Shown: in pieces, positions 31,897 to 43,777 of the stretch
Numbering within the stretch: the first letter of the stretch is position 1
Layout: the number at the start of each line of letters is the position of its first letter
Assembly: GCA_964400015.1 (NCBI GenBank)
Contig: CAYNRR010000001.1
Coordinates: 45,904-109,903, forward strand
Direction of reading: 5' to 3'
Length of the DNA: 64,000 nt
Source: an uncultured Eubacteriales bacterium
GTDB taxonomy: Bacteria > Bacillota > Clostridia > TANB77 > UBA1234
Made by a program: the position numbers and the translations under genes
The notes under the pieces: model-generated
The model's database searches: none
What the model saw: the letters and a program-made list of their open reading frames with translations, nothing else
Told to the model about the DNA's origin: nothing

Positions 31897-31972
31897 GCAC
31901 CACTAGCTCAGTTGGTAGAGCATCCGACTCTTAATCGGCAGGTCCGGGGTTCGAATCCCCGGTGGTGCACCA
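31897..31972 (+). tRNA. tRNA-Lys (anticodon CTT), CCA encoded
   Basis: Hand-folded. Acceptor gcaccac/gtggtgc, anticodon loop CTCTTAA, T-arm ccggg-ttcgaat-ccccg. Confidence 0.88.
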
Positions 31973-33228: not shown

Positions 33229-33304
33229 GGGCCATTAGCTCAGTTGGCAGAGCACTTGACTTTTAATCAAGTTGTCCGCAGTTCGAATCTGCGATGGCTC
33301 ACCA
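33229..33304 (+). tRNA. tRNA-Lys (anticodon TTT)
   Basis: Acceptor gggccat/atggctc, anticodon loop CTTTTAA, T-loop TTCGAAT, CCA end. Confidence 0.9.
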
Positions 33305-33311
33305 CATAACC

Positions 33312-33386
33312 GGCCCGTTGGTCAATCGGTTAAGACATCGCCCTTTCACGGCGGAGTGGGGAGTTCGACTCTCCCACGGGTCACCA
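33312..33386 (+). tRNA. tRNA-Glu (anticodon TTC)
   Basis: Starts ggcccgttggtc, anticodon loop CTTTCAC, CCA end. Typical Firmicute tRNA-Glu. Confidence 0.9.
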
Positions 33387-33387
33387 T

Positions 33388-33463
<76 letters not shown>

Positions 33464-35716: not shown

Positions 35717-35854
35717 ATGTCCCCCCTATAAATTTAATTTAGCTTTTGTTAATTCTTTTATATGAAAGATTTTATCATATATTTAATTTTGTACATATAC
35801 TATTTCTAAAATAATTCAAATTGAAAATATTTTATGTAAATTTTCCTAATTATG

Positions 35855-35883
35855 TTGATATTTTCCATAAAAAATGATATATT
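35855..35883 (+). promoter_or_regulatory. Sigma-A-type promoter of the radical SAM/peptide unit
   Basis: TTGATA (35855-35860), 17-nt spacer, TATATT (35878-35883). Confidence 0.55.
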
Positions 35884-35941
35884 TTATCCGGCATTATTTC
35901 TTGATAAAAACTAAACAATAATTTGATTTGGAGGAATATTT

Positions 35942-37246
35942 ATGAAAAACGTGCAGTATCCCCCTTTTGTACACTGGGAAGTTACGCCCGAATGCAATCA
36001 CAACTGCATTCACTGCTATAACTACTGGCGTAAAGATTCTGAAAAACTCGAATCTATGCACACGAATTTTTCCGAAGAACATTACCTTGAGATTGCAAGA
36101 CGGATTGTAAATCAAAAGGCTCATACCGTTGTTGTAACTGGTGGCGAACCCATGCTGGTCTTTAAGAAAATCGTTAGTTCCATCGAACTTTTGAAAGCAA
36201 ACGGCATTAACGTTTCTATTAACACCAATGCTGTTTTGATTACGGATGAAATTATCGATTTCCTTAAGAAACACGACATCAACCTCTTCATTTCTTTTCC
36301 TTGTGGTAATGAAAAAATTTGCGATTTCATTACCGACAGAAAAGGCGCTATGAAACGAATTGTCCGTTCCTTGGATCATCTTGTCGAGCGTGAAGTACGA
36401 TTCTCCTTGAACATTGTTGCTTCCAAGGCAAATCTTGAATATTTAGAGGAAACCGTCGACTTTCTTAGAGATAGATATCACATCAAGAGAATTCACATCA
36501 CTAGAGTCGGCAAACCTGTAAACTCCGATTCTAGCTTTGATAAATATCTTCTGTCCCACGAAGATTTGAATCGTGTGCAAGATATCTGTGTCAAAATCAA
36601 TTCTGAGTATGGTATTGACGTAGATACAGGATGTCCTTACACTCTCTGCAGTATCAACTCTCAAAAAGCTTTCGAACTTTTCGGATATAAAAAGTTCTGT
36701 ACTGCTGGTAAAACTAGCTATGCTATGGATACTTTTGGTAATATCAAAGCTTGTCCTAGAGACAGTAAGATTTATGGCAACATTCTCACTGAAGATTTTG
36801 CTACCGTTTGGGAAAGAATTTCTGAGTGGCGTGACGGCACGTTGCTTCCTGCAGAATGTAAGCAGTGTAAGATGAGAGAAGTTTGTAAAGGTGGATGCCG
36901 CGTCGATGCATTCCCGTTCACTGGCAAACTTAACTCTTTGGATACGACCGTTATTCTTGAAAACTTGCCCATCAAGTATTGTAAGGTCGCAGATATTCAT
37001 GAATATTCCGACACCGATACCTTCTGTGTAAATCCTTTTAATTCTATCAAAGAGGAATTTGGATACAGGATTTCTTATGGGCATACCTACGTTTTCGTAA
37101 CTTCTGAATTCTATGATTACCTTAGTACGCATCATGTCTTTAAACTTGCAGATATTATGCACGACTTTTCTGTGGATAGCACCATTGCAAATAGCATTAT
37201 TTACCGACTCCTCAAAAATGGCGTAATTCATTTAGCAAGGAGGTAA
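35942..37246 (+). CDS. Radical SAM enzyme with a SPASM auxiliary-cluster domain (peptide-modifying maturase type)
   Basis: CNHNCIHC (C-x3-C-x2-C) at residues 18-25. A GGEP motif. SPASM signature C-x12-G-x4-C (CTAGKTSYAMDTFGNIKAC), then C-x2-C-x5-C-x3-C (CKQCKMREVCKGGC). RBS is GGAGG. G+C is higher than in flanks. Confidence 0.9.
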   Translation: MKNVQYPPFVHWEVTPECNHNCIHCYNYWRKDSEKLESMHTNFSEEHYLEIARRIVNQKAHTVVVTGGEPMLVFKKIVSSIELLKANGINVSINTNAVLITDEIIDFLKKHDINLFISFPCGNEKICDFITDRKGAMKRIVRSLDHLVEREVRFSLNIVASKANLEYLEETVDFLRDRYHIKRIHITRVGKPVNSDSSFDKYLLSHEDLNRVQDICVKINSEYGIDVDTGCPYTLCSINSQKAFELFGYKKFCTAGKTSYAMDTFGNIKACPRDSKIYGNILTEDFATVWERISEWRDGTLLPAECKQCKMREVCKGGCRVDAFPFTGKLNSLDTTVILENLPIKYCKVADIHEYSDTDTFCVNPFNSIKEEFGYRISYGHTYVFVTSEFYDYLSTHHVFKLADIMHDFSVDSTIANSIIYRLLKNGVIHLARR

Positions 37247-37250
37247 TTTT

Positions 37251-37370
37251 ATGGAACAATTCTTCGTAGACGTTTACAGCAATAGCTCTTACTCTGAGTG
37301 TGATTGCTTCACCTGTGATTCTAGCTGTCACTGTGAATGTGACGGTGGTGGCGACTGCAACTGGGGCTAA
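37251..37370 (+). CDS. 39-aa Cys-rich peptide, candidate RiPP precursor: MEQFFVDVYSNSSYSECDCFTCDSSCHCECDGGGDCNWG
   Basis: Too short for the ORF track. The ATG lies 4 nt after the radical SAM stop and 7 nt after an AAGGAGG that overlaps that stop. There are 7 Cys in the last 23 residues. A terminator follows. Confidence 0.65.
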   Translation: MEQFFVDVYSNSSYSECDCFTCDSSCHCECDGGGDCNWG

Positions 37371-37435
37371 TCTAAGCTGAGTTGTATTAAAAACTAGTCA
37401 ATAATTAAATCCTGGCGCTATCCACTAAAAGTATG

Positions 37436-37470
37436 GAGGCACGAATTATTTTATTCGTGCCTCTATTTTT
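37436..37470. terminator. Bidirectional terminator closing the radical SAM/peptide unit and the convergent peptidase gene
   Basis: 11-bp perfect stem gaggcacgaat / attcgtgcctc, 6-nt loop, followed by a T-run. Confidence 0.8.
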
Positions 37471-38126
37471 ATTTTTATATATTCATCATATAAAGTATTT
37501 ATTTCTTCTAAATGTTTTTCAAACTCTGTTGGTTTTTGTAACCAATTTAAAAACATATCTTTTCCATACTGTTCTAATAAAAATTCAATAATTAGATGAC
37601 AATACCTATATCCACCTGTTTCAGCAAACTTCAAGCTATCATACACGCAAAAATCCGAAACTTTTGGCAATTGATTTTTTAAATATGCATTTACCCACGG
37701 CGTATATATTTTTCCCTCATACTGATTACTTAGATAAACTGCAATTCCCTCATCTAATAATTTTAATCTCCTTTGTGATATATCTAACTTATACGATAAA
37801 AGATGTACAAGTTCGTGTAACGCAACCTTGCACAATTCATCTAAATTTTCTCTATTGGGTACTACTACCCAAACTTCTTCAACGTTTGAAAAACCAACTA
37901 GCCAGTCAGGAACATCTATATTTTTATATTGCACACTTTTATCTTTTACTATTTTGTTCATATTTTCCTTTGAAACAATTGATAATACTAGCAAGTCATA
38001 TTCTACTTCAAACCAGTCTTTTATTTTTTCAAATTCACTTGATACTTTCTTACCAAAAAGCTCAAACACGTCTTTTTCTATATCTTCATCGCATTTAATA
38101 ACTAGTTTATTATATTCTTTTACCAT
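37446..38126 (-). CDS. Peptidase_MA-like protein (HExxH ... E)
   Basis: ALHELVHLLSY, followed by LLDEGIAVYLSNQYEG, resembles the MA-clan Peptidase_MA_2 style. The start was set at the second ATG, 8 nt after GGTGA. Native low GC. Confidence 0.6.
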   Translation of the reverse strand: MVKEYNKLVIKCDEDIEKDVFELFGKKVSSEFEKIKDWFEVEYDLLVLSIVSKENMNKIVKDKSVQYKNIDVPDWLVGFSNVEEVWVVVPNRENLDELCKVALHELVHLLSYKLDISQRRLKLLDEGIAVYLSNQYEGKIYTPWVNAYLKNQLPKVSDFCVYDSLKFAETGGYRYCHLIIEFLLEQYGKDMFLNWLQKPTEFEKHLEEINTLYDEYIKIKIEARIK

Positions 38127-38274
38127 ATACATTCACCAAATAAAATATATATCAGTTTATCGAATTTGTCCATCAGACATTTCATTTTACAGTTTACTTG
38201 ATTATGTAAATATGGTATAATTTGCATGTCCGAATATTTTTATAAACATCCTTATATTTTCTAGGAGGTACACC

Positions 38275-38481
38275 ATGTTTACACAGAAAAGTTTTGGTTT
38301 AACTGACAGAGAATTCAACACCATAAGAGATTGGGCAAATACCCACGAATGCAGTTGTAAAGGAAATACTAAGCCCCACAGTTGTTGTGGTGGTGAGGTC
38401 TCTGTAACTTTTACACCTACCACAATTGACATTTTTATATCTGCCAAATGCGTATGTGGTAAAACAATCGTTGTCAGATAA
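38275..38481 (+). CDS. Small Cys-containing protein (68 aa), probable zinc-binding
   Basis: Own promoter (TTTACT, 17 nt, TGgTATAAT), RBS AGGAGG and terminator. The Cys pairs are C-S-C, CC and C-V-C. Confidence 0.65.
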   Translation: MFTQKSFGLTDREFNTIRDWANTHECSCKGNTKPHSCCGGEVSVTFTPTTIDIFISAKCVCGKTIVVR

Positions 38482-41822: not shown

Positions 41823-42068
41823 GTGGTGATCATCTTGAGAGTTTCAAAATTTTACCTTTATTTAGTTTCTATCTTATTTTTTATTTCTATAGTTTTTTAT
41901 TTCTTACCAAATGATAAACTTTTTTCAATGTTTTTTTATTCATTTCTTTTTCATTTTTTAGTTACATTTTATATTATATGTACTTTCTTAGAAATAAATA
42001 TACTTCATGAAAAACAAGGTTCTAAGCTAGATTTAAGTAAATCAAAACTTTCATCTGATAGGAGTTGA
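41823..42068 (+). CDS. Small hydrophobic membrane protein (about 77-81 aa, start uncertain: GTG at 41823 or TTG at 41835)
   Basis: Two to three TM segments. RBS-like AAAGGTGGTGA. Its stop overlaps the next gene. Confidence 0.45.
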   Translation: MVIILRVSKFYLYLVSILFFISIVFYFLPNDKLFSMFFYSFLFHFLVTFYIICTFLEINILHEKQGSKLDLSKSKLSSDRS

Positions 42069-43777
42069 TTTATATTTCAAAACCAAAGTTATTATACACT
42101 AACGTCATTCATATTTCAATAAGTGTAATTCTCATAATGTTTTTTAACTATTTTTTATTTCTCCCATTACTACAATTTAATTCTTTTACTTATGAATTGT
42201 TTGACAAAACTTATACTATTAAGCCGTGGCTTTGGCATAATATCAAAATCTGTTATTTTATTTTTCTTGCTTTTTCTTGGTTCGTATTACTATGGAATTA
42301 TTTTAAGCATTCTCCAATACAAAGTTCGATTAAAACGCCCCCAAAAACTTTAATTGACGAATTTCCCCAATCCAATGAAATTTCCCTCTTTATTGGCAAT
42401 AGTGAGAGTGACAATTCTTCCGTAATAATTAACGAAAAAGGATTATACCAAAACATTCTAGTAACTGGCACAATTGGTACTGGTAAAACATCATCTGCAA
42501 TGTATCCATTTGTAGAGCAACTTATATCTCAGAACATTGGAATGCTTGTACTAGATGTAAAGGGGAACTTCCATTTAAAAATAAAAGAAATAGCTAAAAG
42601 ATATAATCGCAAAGTTACCGTAATAGAATTAAACGGCTTTGAAACATACAATCCACTTGACAAGCCTAATTTAAAACCATCTATAATTGCTAATCGTCTT
42701 AGGACTATTCTTTCCCTATTTTCAAATGAACATACATCAGACACATATTGGCTAGATAAAGTAGAACTTTTTCTAACAGAATGTATTAAATTGTGTCGTA
42801 TTTACAATGATGGCTATGTTACTTTTACTGAACTTCACAAACTAATTTATAATCAGAAATATCTTGCAGAAAAAATTGAATTTACCAAAAACCTATTTTT
42901 ATCAAATTCTTTAAATTATGAGCAAGTTTATGATCTAAGTACTTGTATCGATTTTTTTCAAACAGAATTTCAATCGCTAGATTCAAAAGTTTTATCTATT
43001 ATCCAATCTGAAATTTCCCGTATAACACAGATTTTTATTAACGATTTAGAAGTAAAAAGAACATTTTGTCCAGAACGTAAAGACGTAACTTTTAAAGGAT
43101 TCGAAAATCTAGGAAACAATATCGTTGTCCTTAATATGAACATTTCTGAATATCGAAATCTTTCTAAAATCATTGCAGCTTACCTAAAGCTTGACTTTCA
43201 AAGTGATACTCTAATGCGTTTAGCAAACCAAAAATACATCCAACCAGTTGCTTTTGTGTGCGATGAATATTCTGAATACGCAACGGACAACGATGCTAAT
43301 TTCTTTTCGGAAAGTAGAGAGGCCAAATGTATAAATATCGTATCTACTCAAAGTTATACGTCACTTTTAAATGCTGTTAAAGAACAGACAGCTGCTAAAG
43401 TAATTATACAAAGCCTTGTGAATAAAATTTGGTTTCGTTCCGATGATATTTTCACTATTGAAGAAGCCCAAAAGCAACTAGGAAAGGAGGACAAAGTTAA
43501 ACTTTCCAGAAGTTTATCAGAAAATGCGAAAGAAACAAAATACAATTACTTTTTAAAAACATTTCGCTCCGAAAATTCAAATATTTCTGAAAGTATTAGC
43601 ACACATATCGAGCATGATTTTTTATACGACATCAACTCATTTTCTCTAAACTTAAAAACATTTGAAGCGATTTGTTTTATTTCAAATGGCACTGAAATAT
43701 TAAAGCCTTGCAAAGTTAAGCTTATCCCACATCATCTTAACAACACTCAAAATGTACAAAGACATAGATTTATATAA
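42065..43777 (+). CDS. Membrane-anchored P-loop ATPase, VirD4/TraD-like T4SS coupling-protein architecture
   Basis: Two N-terminal TM helices. Walker A GTIGTGKTS. Walker B-like VAFVCDEYSEY. The start codon (TTG at 42065) is uncertain. Confidence 0.6.
   Translation: MIYISKPKLLYTNVIHISISVILIMFFNYFLFLPLLQFNSFTYELFDKTYTIKPWLWHNIKICYFIFLAFSWFVLLWNYFKHSPIQSSIKTPPKTLIDEFPQSNEISLFIGNSESDNSSVIINEKGLYQNILVTGTIGTGKTSSAMYPFVEQLISQNIGMLVLDVKGNFHLKIKEIAKRYNRKVTVIELNGFETYNPLDKPNLKPSIIANRLRTILSLFSNEHTSDTYWLDKVELFLTECIKLCRIYNDGYVTFTELHKLIYNQKYLAEKIEFTKNLFLSNSLNYEQVYDLSTCIDFFQTEFQSLDSKVLSIIQSEISRITQIFINDLEVKRTFCPERKDVTFKGFENLGNNIVVLNMNISEYRNLSKIIAAYLKLDFQSDTLMRLANQKYIQPVAFVCDEYSEYATDNDANFFSESREAKCINIVSTQSYTSLLNAVKEQTAAKVIIQSLVNKIWFRSDDIFTIEEAQKQLGKEDKVKLSRSLSENAKETKYNYFLKTFRSENSNISESISTHIEHDFLYDINSFSLNLKTFEAICFISNGTEILKPCKVKLIPHHLNNTQNVQRHRFI

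Follow-up and report, generated by a model that had tools for sequence, protein, structure and literature searches.

In a stretch of 64,000 nucleotides from an uncultured Eubacteriales bacterium (contig CAYNRR010000001.1; the whole stretch is called the window here and positions are counted from its first letter) a gene for a radical S-adenosylmethionine (SAM) enzyme with a SPASM-type region is followed directly by a 39-codon open reading frame (ORF) which encodes a cysteine-rich peptide. The best reading of this locus is that it represents a family among the ribosomally synthesized, post-translationally modified peptides (RiPPs) of the radical SAM/SPASM type which has no prior description. 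The 39-codon ORF is a real gene, conserved beside the enzyme gene, and the two very probably form a pair of maturase and precursor. According to our preferred account the enzyme would be a leader-dependent maturase that forms thioethers from Cys to Asp, Glu or Asn residues, with a peptidase that would remove the leader, and to this full account we assign a probability of about 0.6. The cassette would be a self-sufficient one of two or three genes and has apparently been exchanged between gut Bacillota and the reduced-genome Saccharibacteria; other Patescibacteria possess a related version.

The precursor gene and the maturase

The radical SAM/SPASM ORF (434 aa) extends from 35942 to 37246 on the plus strand with the TAA stop codon at 37244-37246, and the 39-codon ORF at 37251-37370 starts 4 nt further on. 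The encoded peptide is MEQFFVDVYSNSSYSECDCFTCDSSCHCECDGGGDCNWG with seven Cys at positions 17, 19, 22, 26, 28, 30 and 36; coordinates and sequence are as given in a preliminary description of the locus, in which the two genes had been put forward as a RiPP-like unit. We compared 34 loci from species-representative genomes and 56 loci from metagenomes (denoted by L and a number). In nearly all of the approximately 50 loci with a full-length relative of the enzyme a Cys-rich ORF of 31-58 aa adjoins the enzyme gene on the same strand. This ORF is mostly found downstream of the enzyme gene and in L012, L014, L018, L040, L042 and L091 upstream of it, and at three loci (L020, L051 and L062, of which L051 and L062 are short contigs) there is no adjoining Cys-rich ORF. 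The comparison of the homologous loci therefore bears out the pairing of the enzyme with a Cys-rich peptide. Of the expectation that enzyme homologs are always followed by such an ORF, the close neighborhood stands in nearly all cases but the fixed order does not.

Alignments of the precursors show a conserved leader, a variable core and a position next to the enzyme gene across the homologs, as is typical of a RiPP precursor and its maturase. The leader motif M-x-x-F-[FIV]-V-[ND]-[VIL]-Y, or one similar to it, is kept across clades with differing cores. In the window it reads MEQFFVDVY and is followed by a Ser/Asn-rich linker, the length of which varies across the family; the proposal that the 16 N-terminal residues are leader-like thus agrees with the retention of an F-F-V-[ND]-V-Y motif across clades. 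The core of the main clade has the motif C-[DNQ]-x-x-C-x-C-[DE]-C-[DHNY]-x3-4-C. In the precursor alignments C26, C28, C30 and C36 are invariant and C22 is almost so. The core of the window peptide comprises 23 residues, one third of them Cys, and is strongly acidic. The cores range from CHCECDGGGDC via CNCDCHGDGCDC to cores with 12-14 Cys. In 39 precursors the core is composed of 30.6% Cys, 14.3% Asp, 11.2% Gly, 8.8% Asn and 0.4% Lys plus Arg, and of 293 residues that directly follow a Cys 247 are D, N, Y, H or E.

A crude count over the leader and core blocks of seven loci gave a proportion of synonymous differences (pS) of ~0.94, which is near saturation, versus ~0.11 for nonsynonymous differences (pN). 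The small ORF is under purifying selection. A profile built from the precursors found 39 clusters among 5.8 billion proteins, none of them named, and two of these clusters recur on 55 and 72 metagenomic contigs. That the 39-codon frame is open merely by chance, with the enzyme being an orphan, is hardly conceivable. Such a reading could point to the shortness of the ORF and to the gene callers, which overlooked it in several assemblies, but would have to explain the protein-level conservation next to enzymes which are only 40-79% identical, the pN far below pS, the strong ribosome-binding site and the 39 known precursor clusters.

The enzyme matches PF04055 with 79.3 bits (cutoff 29.5) and thus belongs to the radical SAM superfamily. 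There are more than 120 full-length unnamed homologs with 43-79% identity, and the source annotation of the homologs is no more specific than "radical SAM protein". The sequence CNHNCIHC at residues 18-25 contains the Cys motif C18-x3-C22-x2-C25, and these three Cys as well as TGGEP (residues 66-70) are invariant in 29 diverse homologs. The SPASM region contains C253-x12-G266-x4-C271 and C306-x2-C309-x5-C315-x3-C319, with 115 aa beyond C319, and seven Cys of this region (236, 253, 271, 306, 309, 315 and 319) are invariant in the same homologs. All motifs that had been noticed before are present, but the signature had been called a full one, and the canonical last SPASM Cys after CX3C is missing in all 29 aligned homologs. 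The Pfam SPASM model (PF13186) remains below threshold with the window protein and is recorded for many homologs. The C-terminal half of the SPASM-type region aligns with residues 307-353 of PqqE, an enzyme in which an Asp acts as cluster ligand. Within residues 319-335 (window 36896-36945) D334 is invariant and D322 nearly so in the 29 homologs. Because of this conservation D334 is a candidate for the fourth cluster ligand, and D322 also could serve as a non-Cys ligand.

The AlphaFold2 model of the enzyme has a predicted local distance difference test (pLDDT) score of 91, and its best fold matches are SuiB, anSME, TigE, CteB, SkfB and ChlB over ~350 columns. The first strand of the model begins at residue 9, and there is no N-terminal domain. 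Residues 340-434 modeled alone reached a pLDDT of 92 and form four beta strands followed by a winged-helix-like unit of helix and strand. The best-ranked Foldseek matches of this domain are the RiPP recognition element (RRE) of TigE, McbB, PqqD (5sxy), the RRE of PbtF, lasso B1 proteins, MccB, TbtB, MadB and TruD; the entries 6jx3 and 5v1u belong to these top RRE matches. Because nearly all of the best-ranked matches are RiPP leader-binding domains, the clear reading of the model is that the C-terminal ~90 aa adopt an RRE fold. The extra C-terminal region had already been suspected to be a peptide-recognition domain, which the predicted fold and the predominance of leader-binding domains among the Foldseek matches support. 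A profile of the domain found 57 representatives among 1.84 billion proteins, nearly all of them at approximately residues 340-434 of ~430-aa proteins or fragments, and we therefore assign this type of RRE to the enzyme family.

The peptide and the enzyme were also searched against the RiPP family models. No curated maturase cutoff was reached, no NCBIfam equivalog cutoff at all was reached by the enzyme, the peptide had no match, and no Pfam or NCBIfam family fits the pair. The best NCBIfam score of the enzyme was obtained with the DynA model (97 bits, cutoff 450), followed by PapB (NF047865; 90.3 bits, cutoff 340) and MftC (89.2 bits, cutoff 265). Heme and cofactor enzyme models scored about 85 bits, far under their cutoffs. 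Lower scores were found for StsB (NF045574; 71.8 bits, cutoff 625, a partial match), QhpD (68 bits, cutoff 453), anSME (TIGR03942; 64.4 bits, cutoff 349) and PqqE (56 bits, cutoff 381). The SCIFF maturase model TIGR03974 (cutoff 425 bits) is absent from the 25 best matches of the enzyme and hence scores below 56 bits. Ten diverse precursors gave no NCBIfam match even at E <= 10, including the SCIFF model TIGR03973. In accordance with the preliminary description, neither the peptide nor the enzyme fits the SCIFF/ScfB models.

The features of the cassette and its surroundings in the window are as follows.

35814..37444, no strand: segment of 1631 bp missing in a close relative (alignment with L104 and L105)
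35855..35883, plus strand: promoter-like site TTGATA-17-TATATT with TG ahead of the -10 (consensus match only, 10 of 12)
35930..35934, plus strand: GGAGG ribosome-binding site, 7 nt 5' of the ATG of the radical SAM gene (read from the sequence)
35942..37246, plus strand: gene of the radical SAM/SPASM maturase, 434 aa (PF04055 match, predicted fold)
35993..36016, plus strand: Cys of the radical SAM cluster, C18, C22 and C25 (invariant in 29 homologs)
36647..36898, plus strand: auxiliary-cluster region of the SPASM type (residues 236-319), in which seven Cys are invariant (alignment of homologs)
37004..37243, plus strand: predicted C-terminal RRE, approximately residues 355-434 (structure model and Foldseek)
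37237..37243, plus strand: AAGGAGG ribosome-binding site of the precursor gene, 7 nt 5' of its ATG (read from the sequence)
37251..37298, plus strand: leader of the precursor, residues 1-16, MEQFFVDVYSNSSYSE (alignments)
37299..37370, plus strand: core of the precursor, residues 17-39, CDCFTCDSSCHCECDGGGDCNWG, with the stop codon (alignments, selection)
37433..37466, no strand: bidirectional terminator hairpin of 14 bp followed by a T-run, common to the cassette and the convergent peptidase gene
37446..38132, minus strand: gene of an HExxH...E metallopeptidase-like protein, 228 aa (weak Peptidase_MA_2 match, invariant motif)

The associated peptidase and the probable chemistry

The locus had been said to carry no leader protease. 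This does not hold, as the gene of a candidate, a small HExxH...E metallopeptidase-like protein, is located at 37446-38132, just beyond the part that had been considered. In eight homologs H106, E107, H110 and E128 are invariant, which resembles the HExxH motif and the downstream Glu, the third zinc ligand, of MA-clan (gluzincin) metallopeptidases. The match to Peptidase_MA_2 is weak (20-30 bits, cutoff 32.4), the best PDB profile match is a collagenase unit (E 0.008), two homologs show weak M1-type similarity and a signal peptide was not seen by eye. Homologs of the peptidase adjoin the radical SAM gene in L001-L004, L006, L009, L011, L019, L021, L023, L027, L036, L039, L095-L097 and L100-L103. 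At these ~20 loci the peptidase gene is located on either side of the radical SAM gene, downstream and convergent or upstream, and the surrounding genes are otherwise different. The right arm of the terminator hairpin encodes the C-terminus of the peptidase (E-A-R), and the pairing of the hairpin is preserved by compensatory changes in L095, L100, L001, L101 and L004. Since the gene adjoins the cassette in ~20 loci and shares this conserved hairpin with it, its product is a good candidate for the leader peptidase. An aminopeptidase-like mode of trimming is conceivable, if speculative, because there is no conserved cleavage motif, the linker varies in length and some homologs have the weak M1-type similarity. 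We also considered whether the peptidase is exclusive to this system and rejected this, since homologs occur away from radical SAM genes.

In the mechanism which we propose the C-terminal RRE would dock the beta-strand-prone FFVDVY motif of the leader, and the CX3CX2C cluster would cleave SAM to give a 5'-deoxyadenosyl radical by which acceptor residues of the core would then lose a hydrogen. Thiolates of core Cys, probably bound to an auxiliary Fe-S cluster, would trap the resulting carbon radical so that intramolecular thioether bridges are formed. The likeliest acceptors would be carbons in the side chains of Asp, Glu or Asn, which flank almost every Cys, i.e., a ranthipeptide-type reaction as known from PapB, NxxcB and QhpD, and the convergent HExxH...E metallopeptidase would then remove or trim the leader. 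Because the cassette has no dedicated exporter or immunity gene of its own, its product may have an intracellular role or be released by a general route. The data show the conserved gene pair, the predicted RRE fold, the intact catalytic motifs and the association with the peptidase gene; what we infer in this scheme is that the RRE binds the leader, that thioethers form and on which atoms, what the peptidase does and where the product ends up.

That thioethers of some kind are formed we regard as likely. Asp, Asn and Glu are known as non-alpha thioether acceptors from freyrasin/PapB, NxxcA/NxxcB and QhpC/QhpD (PMC8326336), and for this reason we favor leader-guided thioethers from Cys to Asp, Glu or Asn, which by analogy are probably what the core contains. 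By the same analogy the C-[DN]-x-x-C of the main clade may contain an NxxC-like site, and C19-x3-D23 of the window peptide may be a CX3D-like site.

Several observations weigh against this account. The scores of the thioether families (PapB 90, StsB 72, QhpD 68) are no higher than those of DynA (97), which forms C-C and ether cross-links, and MftC (89). As thioether and non-thioether models score alike and all far under their cutoffs, the type of reaction cannot be read from the sequence. In the PDB the enzyme sequence matches TigE best, which is not known to be a thioether synthase. The core shows no repeated spacing of donor and acceptor and has no equivalent of the CX3D repeat of freyrasin, and apart from Cys the main clade retains only the [DNQ] after C22 and the [DE] between C28 and C30. 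The Foldseek E-values of the C-terminal domain are weak (the best is 9e-3 and none is <= 0.001), sequence profiles give only weak winged-helix similarity, and by fold similarity this domain may bind the leader. Nor is the link to the peptidase obligate: the Saccharibacteria loci have no peptidase, and when three homologs of the peptidase were sampled outside the known loci, all three were without a radical SAM gene within 4 kb. In several lineages the peptidase gene is moreover split or truncated by frameshifts at differing positions (L002/L095, 7591-8190; L003; L023; L036; L039; L100, 1816-2497; L101-L103, 7495-8176). These frameshifts are reproduced in independent assemblies. They could mean that a dispensable partner is decaying or that the protein consists of two pieces, or they could be errors in homopolymer runs.

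The same pair could also be a sactisynthase with its substrate, in which Cys sulfur is joined in an StsB-like manner to alpha-carbons of the backbone, such as those of Gly in CDGGGDC. The window core does have CxCxC followed by a Gly run, StsA with its CxCxCx4GxGxG core and three Cys-Gly sactionines is a precedent (PMC10288494), and the StsB model gives a partial match of 72 bits. This score is far under the cutoff of 625, the Gly run is not conserved, being replaced by SSY, SAN, VAN or HGD in other clades, and where positions other than Cys are conserved they hold acidic or amide residues; we therefore consider a sactisynthase rather unlikely. Another radical reaction, such as C-C or C-O cross-linking on Tyr, His or Trp, epimerization or a different transformation of Cys, with the Cys serving for metal binding or disulfides, seems unlikely as well. 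It would fit the top NCBIfam score of DynA, which is not a thioether synthase, the PDB match to TigE, the Tyr, His and Trp residues recurring after or near Cys, and the metallothionein-like composition of the core. But only Cys positions are invariant family-wide, the aromatic residues are not conserved across clades, and SPASM enzymes with Cys-rich cores usually make thioethers (PMC8326336).

A further reading is a peptide that is not a substrate at all and instead serves as an unmodified metal-binding or Fe-S-carrying partner of an enzyme acting elsewhere, e.g., a sulfatase maturase or a cofactor enzyme. The metallothionein-like composition would suit such a role, but the leader-like motif is conserved while the core varies, the enzyme bears a predicted RRE fold, the anSME, heme, PQQ and mycofactocin models all remain far under their cutoffs, there is no sulfatase among the neighboring genes and neither a sulfatase nor a cofactor gene is a conserved neighbor; we hold this to be very unlikely. 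As to the product, it is a minor possibility that instead of a secreted bacteriocin a cross-linked metallothionein-like peptide results which is retained by the cell as a metal or redox buffer or in a cofactor-like role, or that an undescribed cross-link is formed on C-x-C-[DE]-C.

Layout, distribution and genomic context of the cassette

The unit had been said to have its own promoter and terminator, and we do find both a site resembling the promoter consensus and a hairpin with a T-run. The promoter-like site at 35855-35883 lies within the 1631-bp segment missing from the close relative L104. The AAGGAGG of the precursor gene, which had been thought to overlap the stop codon of the enzyme gene, is present but abuts the TAA at 37244-37246. 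Translational coupling of the two genes, also part of the preliminary description, is not a trait of the family, as the gene spacing varies and the precursor gene is found upstream of the enzyme gene in several clades. The observation that the unit is richer in G+C than its flanks is borne out by the G+C content (0.37-0.41 versus 0.25-0.30) and by the G+C content at third codon positions (GC3), which is 0.395 for the enzyme gene and 0.525 for the peptide gene versus 0.14-0.28 for 15 neighboring genes; the GC3 of the two genes is about double that of each neighbor, the associated peptidase gene among them. A milder GC3 excess of the enzyme gene is also seen in L101, L004, L009, L013, L021 and L098, and the excess is not accounted for by a simple recent insertion.

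The loci L104 and L105, from the close relative, are 87-90% identical to the window at the nucleotide level on both sides of the cassette, and in them window position 35813 is joined straight to 37445 (at 4682 in L104 and at 858 in L105). Missing there are exactly the promoter-like site, the genes of the enzyme and the precursor and the hairpin's left arm. The DUF2207 gene and the peptidase gene are ~86 bp apart at this junction. The gene order is the same as in the window: acyl-CoA-ligase-like gene, mnmA, 68-aa ORF, peptidase, DUF2207. The cassette is thus dispensable. Its absence most likely results from a deletion in the relative, which is the simpler explanation because the junction and the hairpin are ancestral to the clade. 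A recent horizontal insertion, as could be suggested by the GC3 values and the absence in L104/L105, was rejected for this indel since various lineages keep the hairpin at the junction, with compensatory changes. Carriage on plasmids was considered too, and a search of PLSDB gave no homolog at E <= 1e-20.

The 68-aa ORF (window 38275-38481, plus strand) between the peptidase gene and mnmA contains seven Cys (…HECSCKGNTKPHSCCGG…KCVCGK…). It has a gene call at the same place in L104 and no Pfam match, and it is not present in the other cassette loci. A tRNA-Lys(CTT) gene at 31897-31972 and a Lys(TTT)-Glu(TTC)-Thr(TGT) cluster at 33229-33463 are both located upstream of the DUF2207 gene. Approximately 4 kb from the cassette a 570-aa ORF (42065-43777, plus strand) has TrwB/TraG-type coupling-protein domains and may be what is left of a conjugative element.

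No exporter is a conserved neighbor at any of the loci examined, in agreement with what had been noticed for the unit. ABC genes near L095 (of the nitrate/sulfonate uptake type) and near L106 were considered as dedicated transporters and rejected as lineage-specific.

The relatives of the enzyme come mainly from gut samples of humans and animals. The family is carried by uncultured Clostridia of the gut (human, rabbit, roe deer, goat and buffalo), Lachnospiraceae, Faecousia and Candidatus Saccharibacteria/Nanosyncoccus. In a neighbor-joining tree without bootstraps the Saccharibacteria enzymes (L005, L007, L008 and L010) form one clade inside the Clostridia enzymes, and this nesting suggests a cross-phylum transfer between gut Clostridia and Saccharibacteria. 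Digesters and sediments are the source of a distant subfamily, which belongs to Shapirobacteria and further Patescibacteria (L022, L056-L058, L060, L061 and L065); its leader is a different one (LEGIVPML) and its conserved core is CD[DE]CDxWCE[GA]SGC[DE]SxQCD[KQ]EG, and in the L022 enzyme at least the C-terminal ~70 residues look RRE-like by eye. The Faecousia/Lachnospiraceae loci L015-L017 encode either one precursor or two, in which the number of Cys reaches 14 (CYGSCNCNCN…; L015 3363-3775, L016 6319-6682, L017 2793-2984) together with two further radical SAM/SPASM genes, which give partial ACGX-like and CefB/TIGR04463-like matches under cutoff. In L091-L094, which represent one lineage, the precursor and radical SAM genes are found directly downstream of rpoB/rpoC and adjoin a phage-type integrase.

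Comparison with known systems

The general logic of a radical SAM/SPASM enzyme beside a Cys-rich precursor is well known; for the family itself we found no model, name or paper. A full-text literature search for the leader and core motifs found no paper containing them, and searches for ranthipeptides or radical SAM enzymes together with Saccharibacteria or Patescibacteria found nothing on this family. The occurrence in Saccharibacteria is notable, as these tiny genomes keep few accessory genes. Characterization would enlarge the RiPPs by one family, might bring to light a cross-link topology that is new and would bear on the question of what exporter-less Cys-rich radical SAM peptides such as SCIFF do for the cell.

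With the SCIFF systems (ScfA/ScfB, CteA/CteB and Tte1186a/Tte1186) the cassette shares the unit of a small precursor and a radical SAM/SPASM enzyme, the wide occurrence in Clostridia, the conserved leader, the Cys-rich C-terminal core and the lack of a dedicated exporter or immunity gene, which in the case of SCIFF has been taken as an argument against an antibiotic role (PMC8326336). It differs from them in that the RRE is C-terminal and an N-terminal RRE is absent, as well as in the core motif, the precursor length (31-58 aa) and the variable gene order. PapA/PapB, which gives freyrasin with six Cys-to-Asp C-beta thioethers, is similar in its Cys/Asp-rich core; PapB is the top-scoring thioether model, and one CX3D-like site may be present here. 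The score is, however, far under the cutoff, CX3D is not repeated, the position of the RRE is another one and the Cys are denser (CxCxC). In NxxcA/NxxcB one thioether joins Cys to the C-beta of Asn within an NxxC motif, and the C-[DN]-x-x-C of the main clade would give a similar spacing of acceptor and donor (PMC8326336). In contrast to the family described here, NxxcA has one Cys and one bridge and belongs to a streptococcal operon linked to quorum sensing.

QhpD is also a radical SAM/SPASM enzyme and cross-links Cys to acidic residues in QhpC, the gamma subunit of quinohemoprotein amine dehydrogenase. The QhpC/QhpD product remains with the cell and does not serve as an antibiotic; unlike in that system no dehydrogenase subunits are encoded near the cassette, and the QhpD score of 68 bits contrasts with the cutoff of 453. 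StsA/StsB resembles the cassette in the CxCxC triplet and, within the clade of the window, in the Gly run, but this run is not family-wide and the StsB score is far under the cutoff. A C-terminal RRE on a radical SAM RiPP enzyme is known from the proteusin epimerases of the PoyD type, which have the radical SAM cluster only, are devoid of a SPASM domain and act on long nitrile-hydratase-like precursors (PMC8326336); our literature search on C-terminal RREs found no description of one on a SPASM maturase. The family combines traits not previously described together, namely a SPASM-type region with a predicted C-terminal RRE, a very short leader, an acidic core with 30% Cys and the motif C-x-C-[DE]-C, frequent association with an HExxH peptidase and the lack of an exporter. 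Both architecture and host range are unusual within a well-known system logic, and the family is a good target for experiments.

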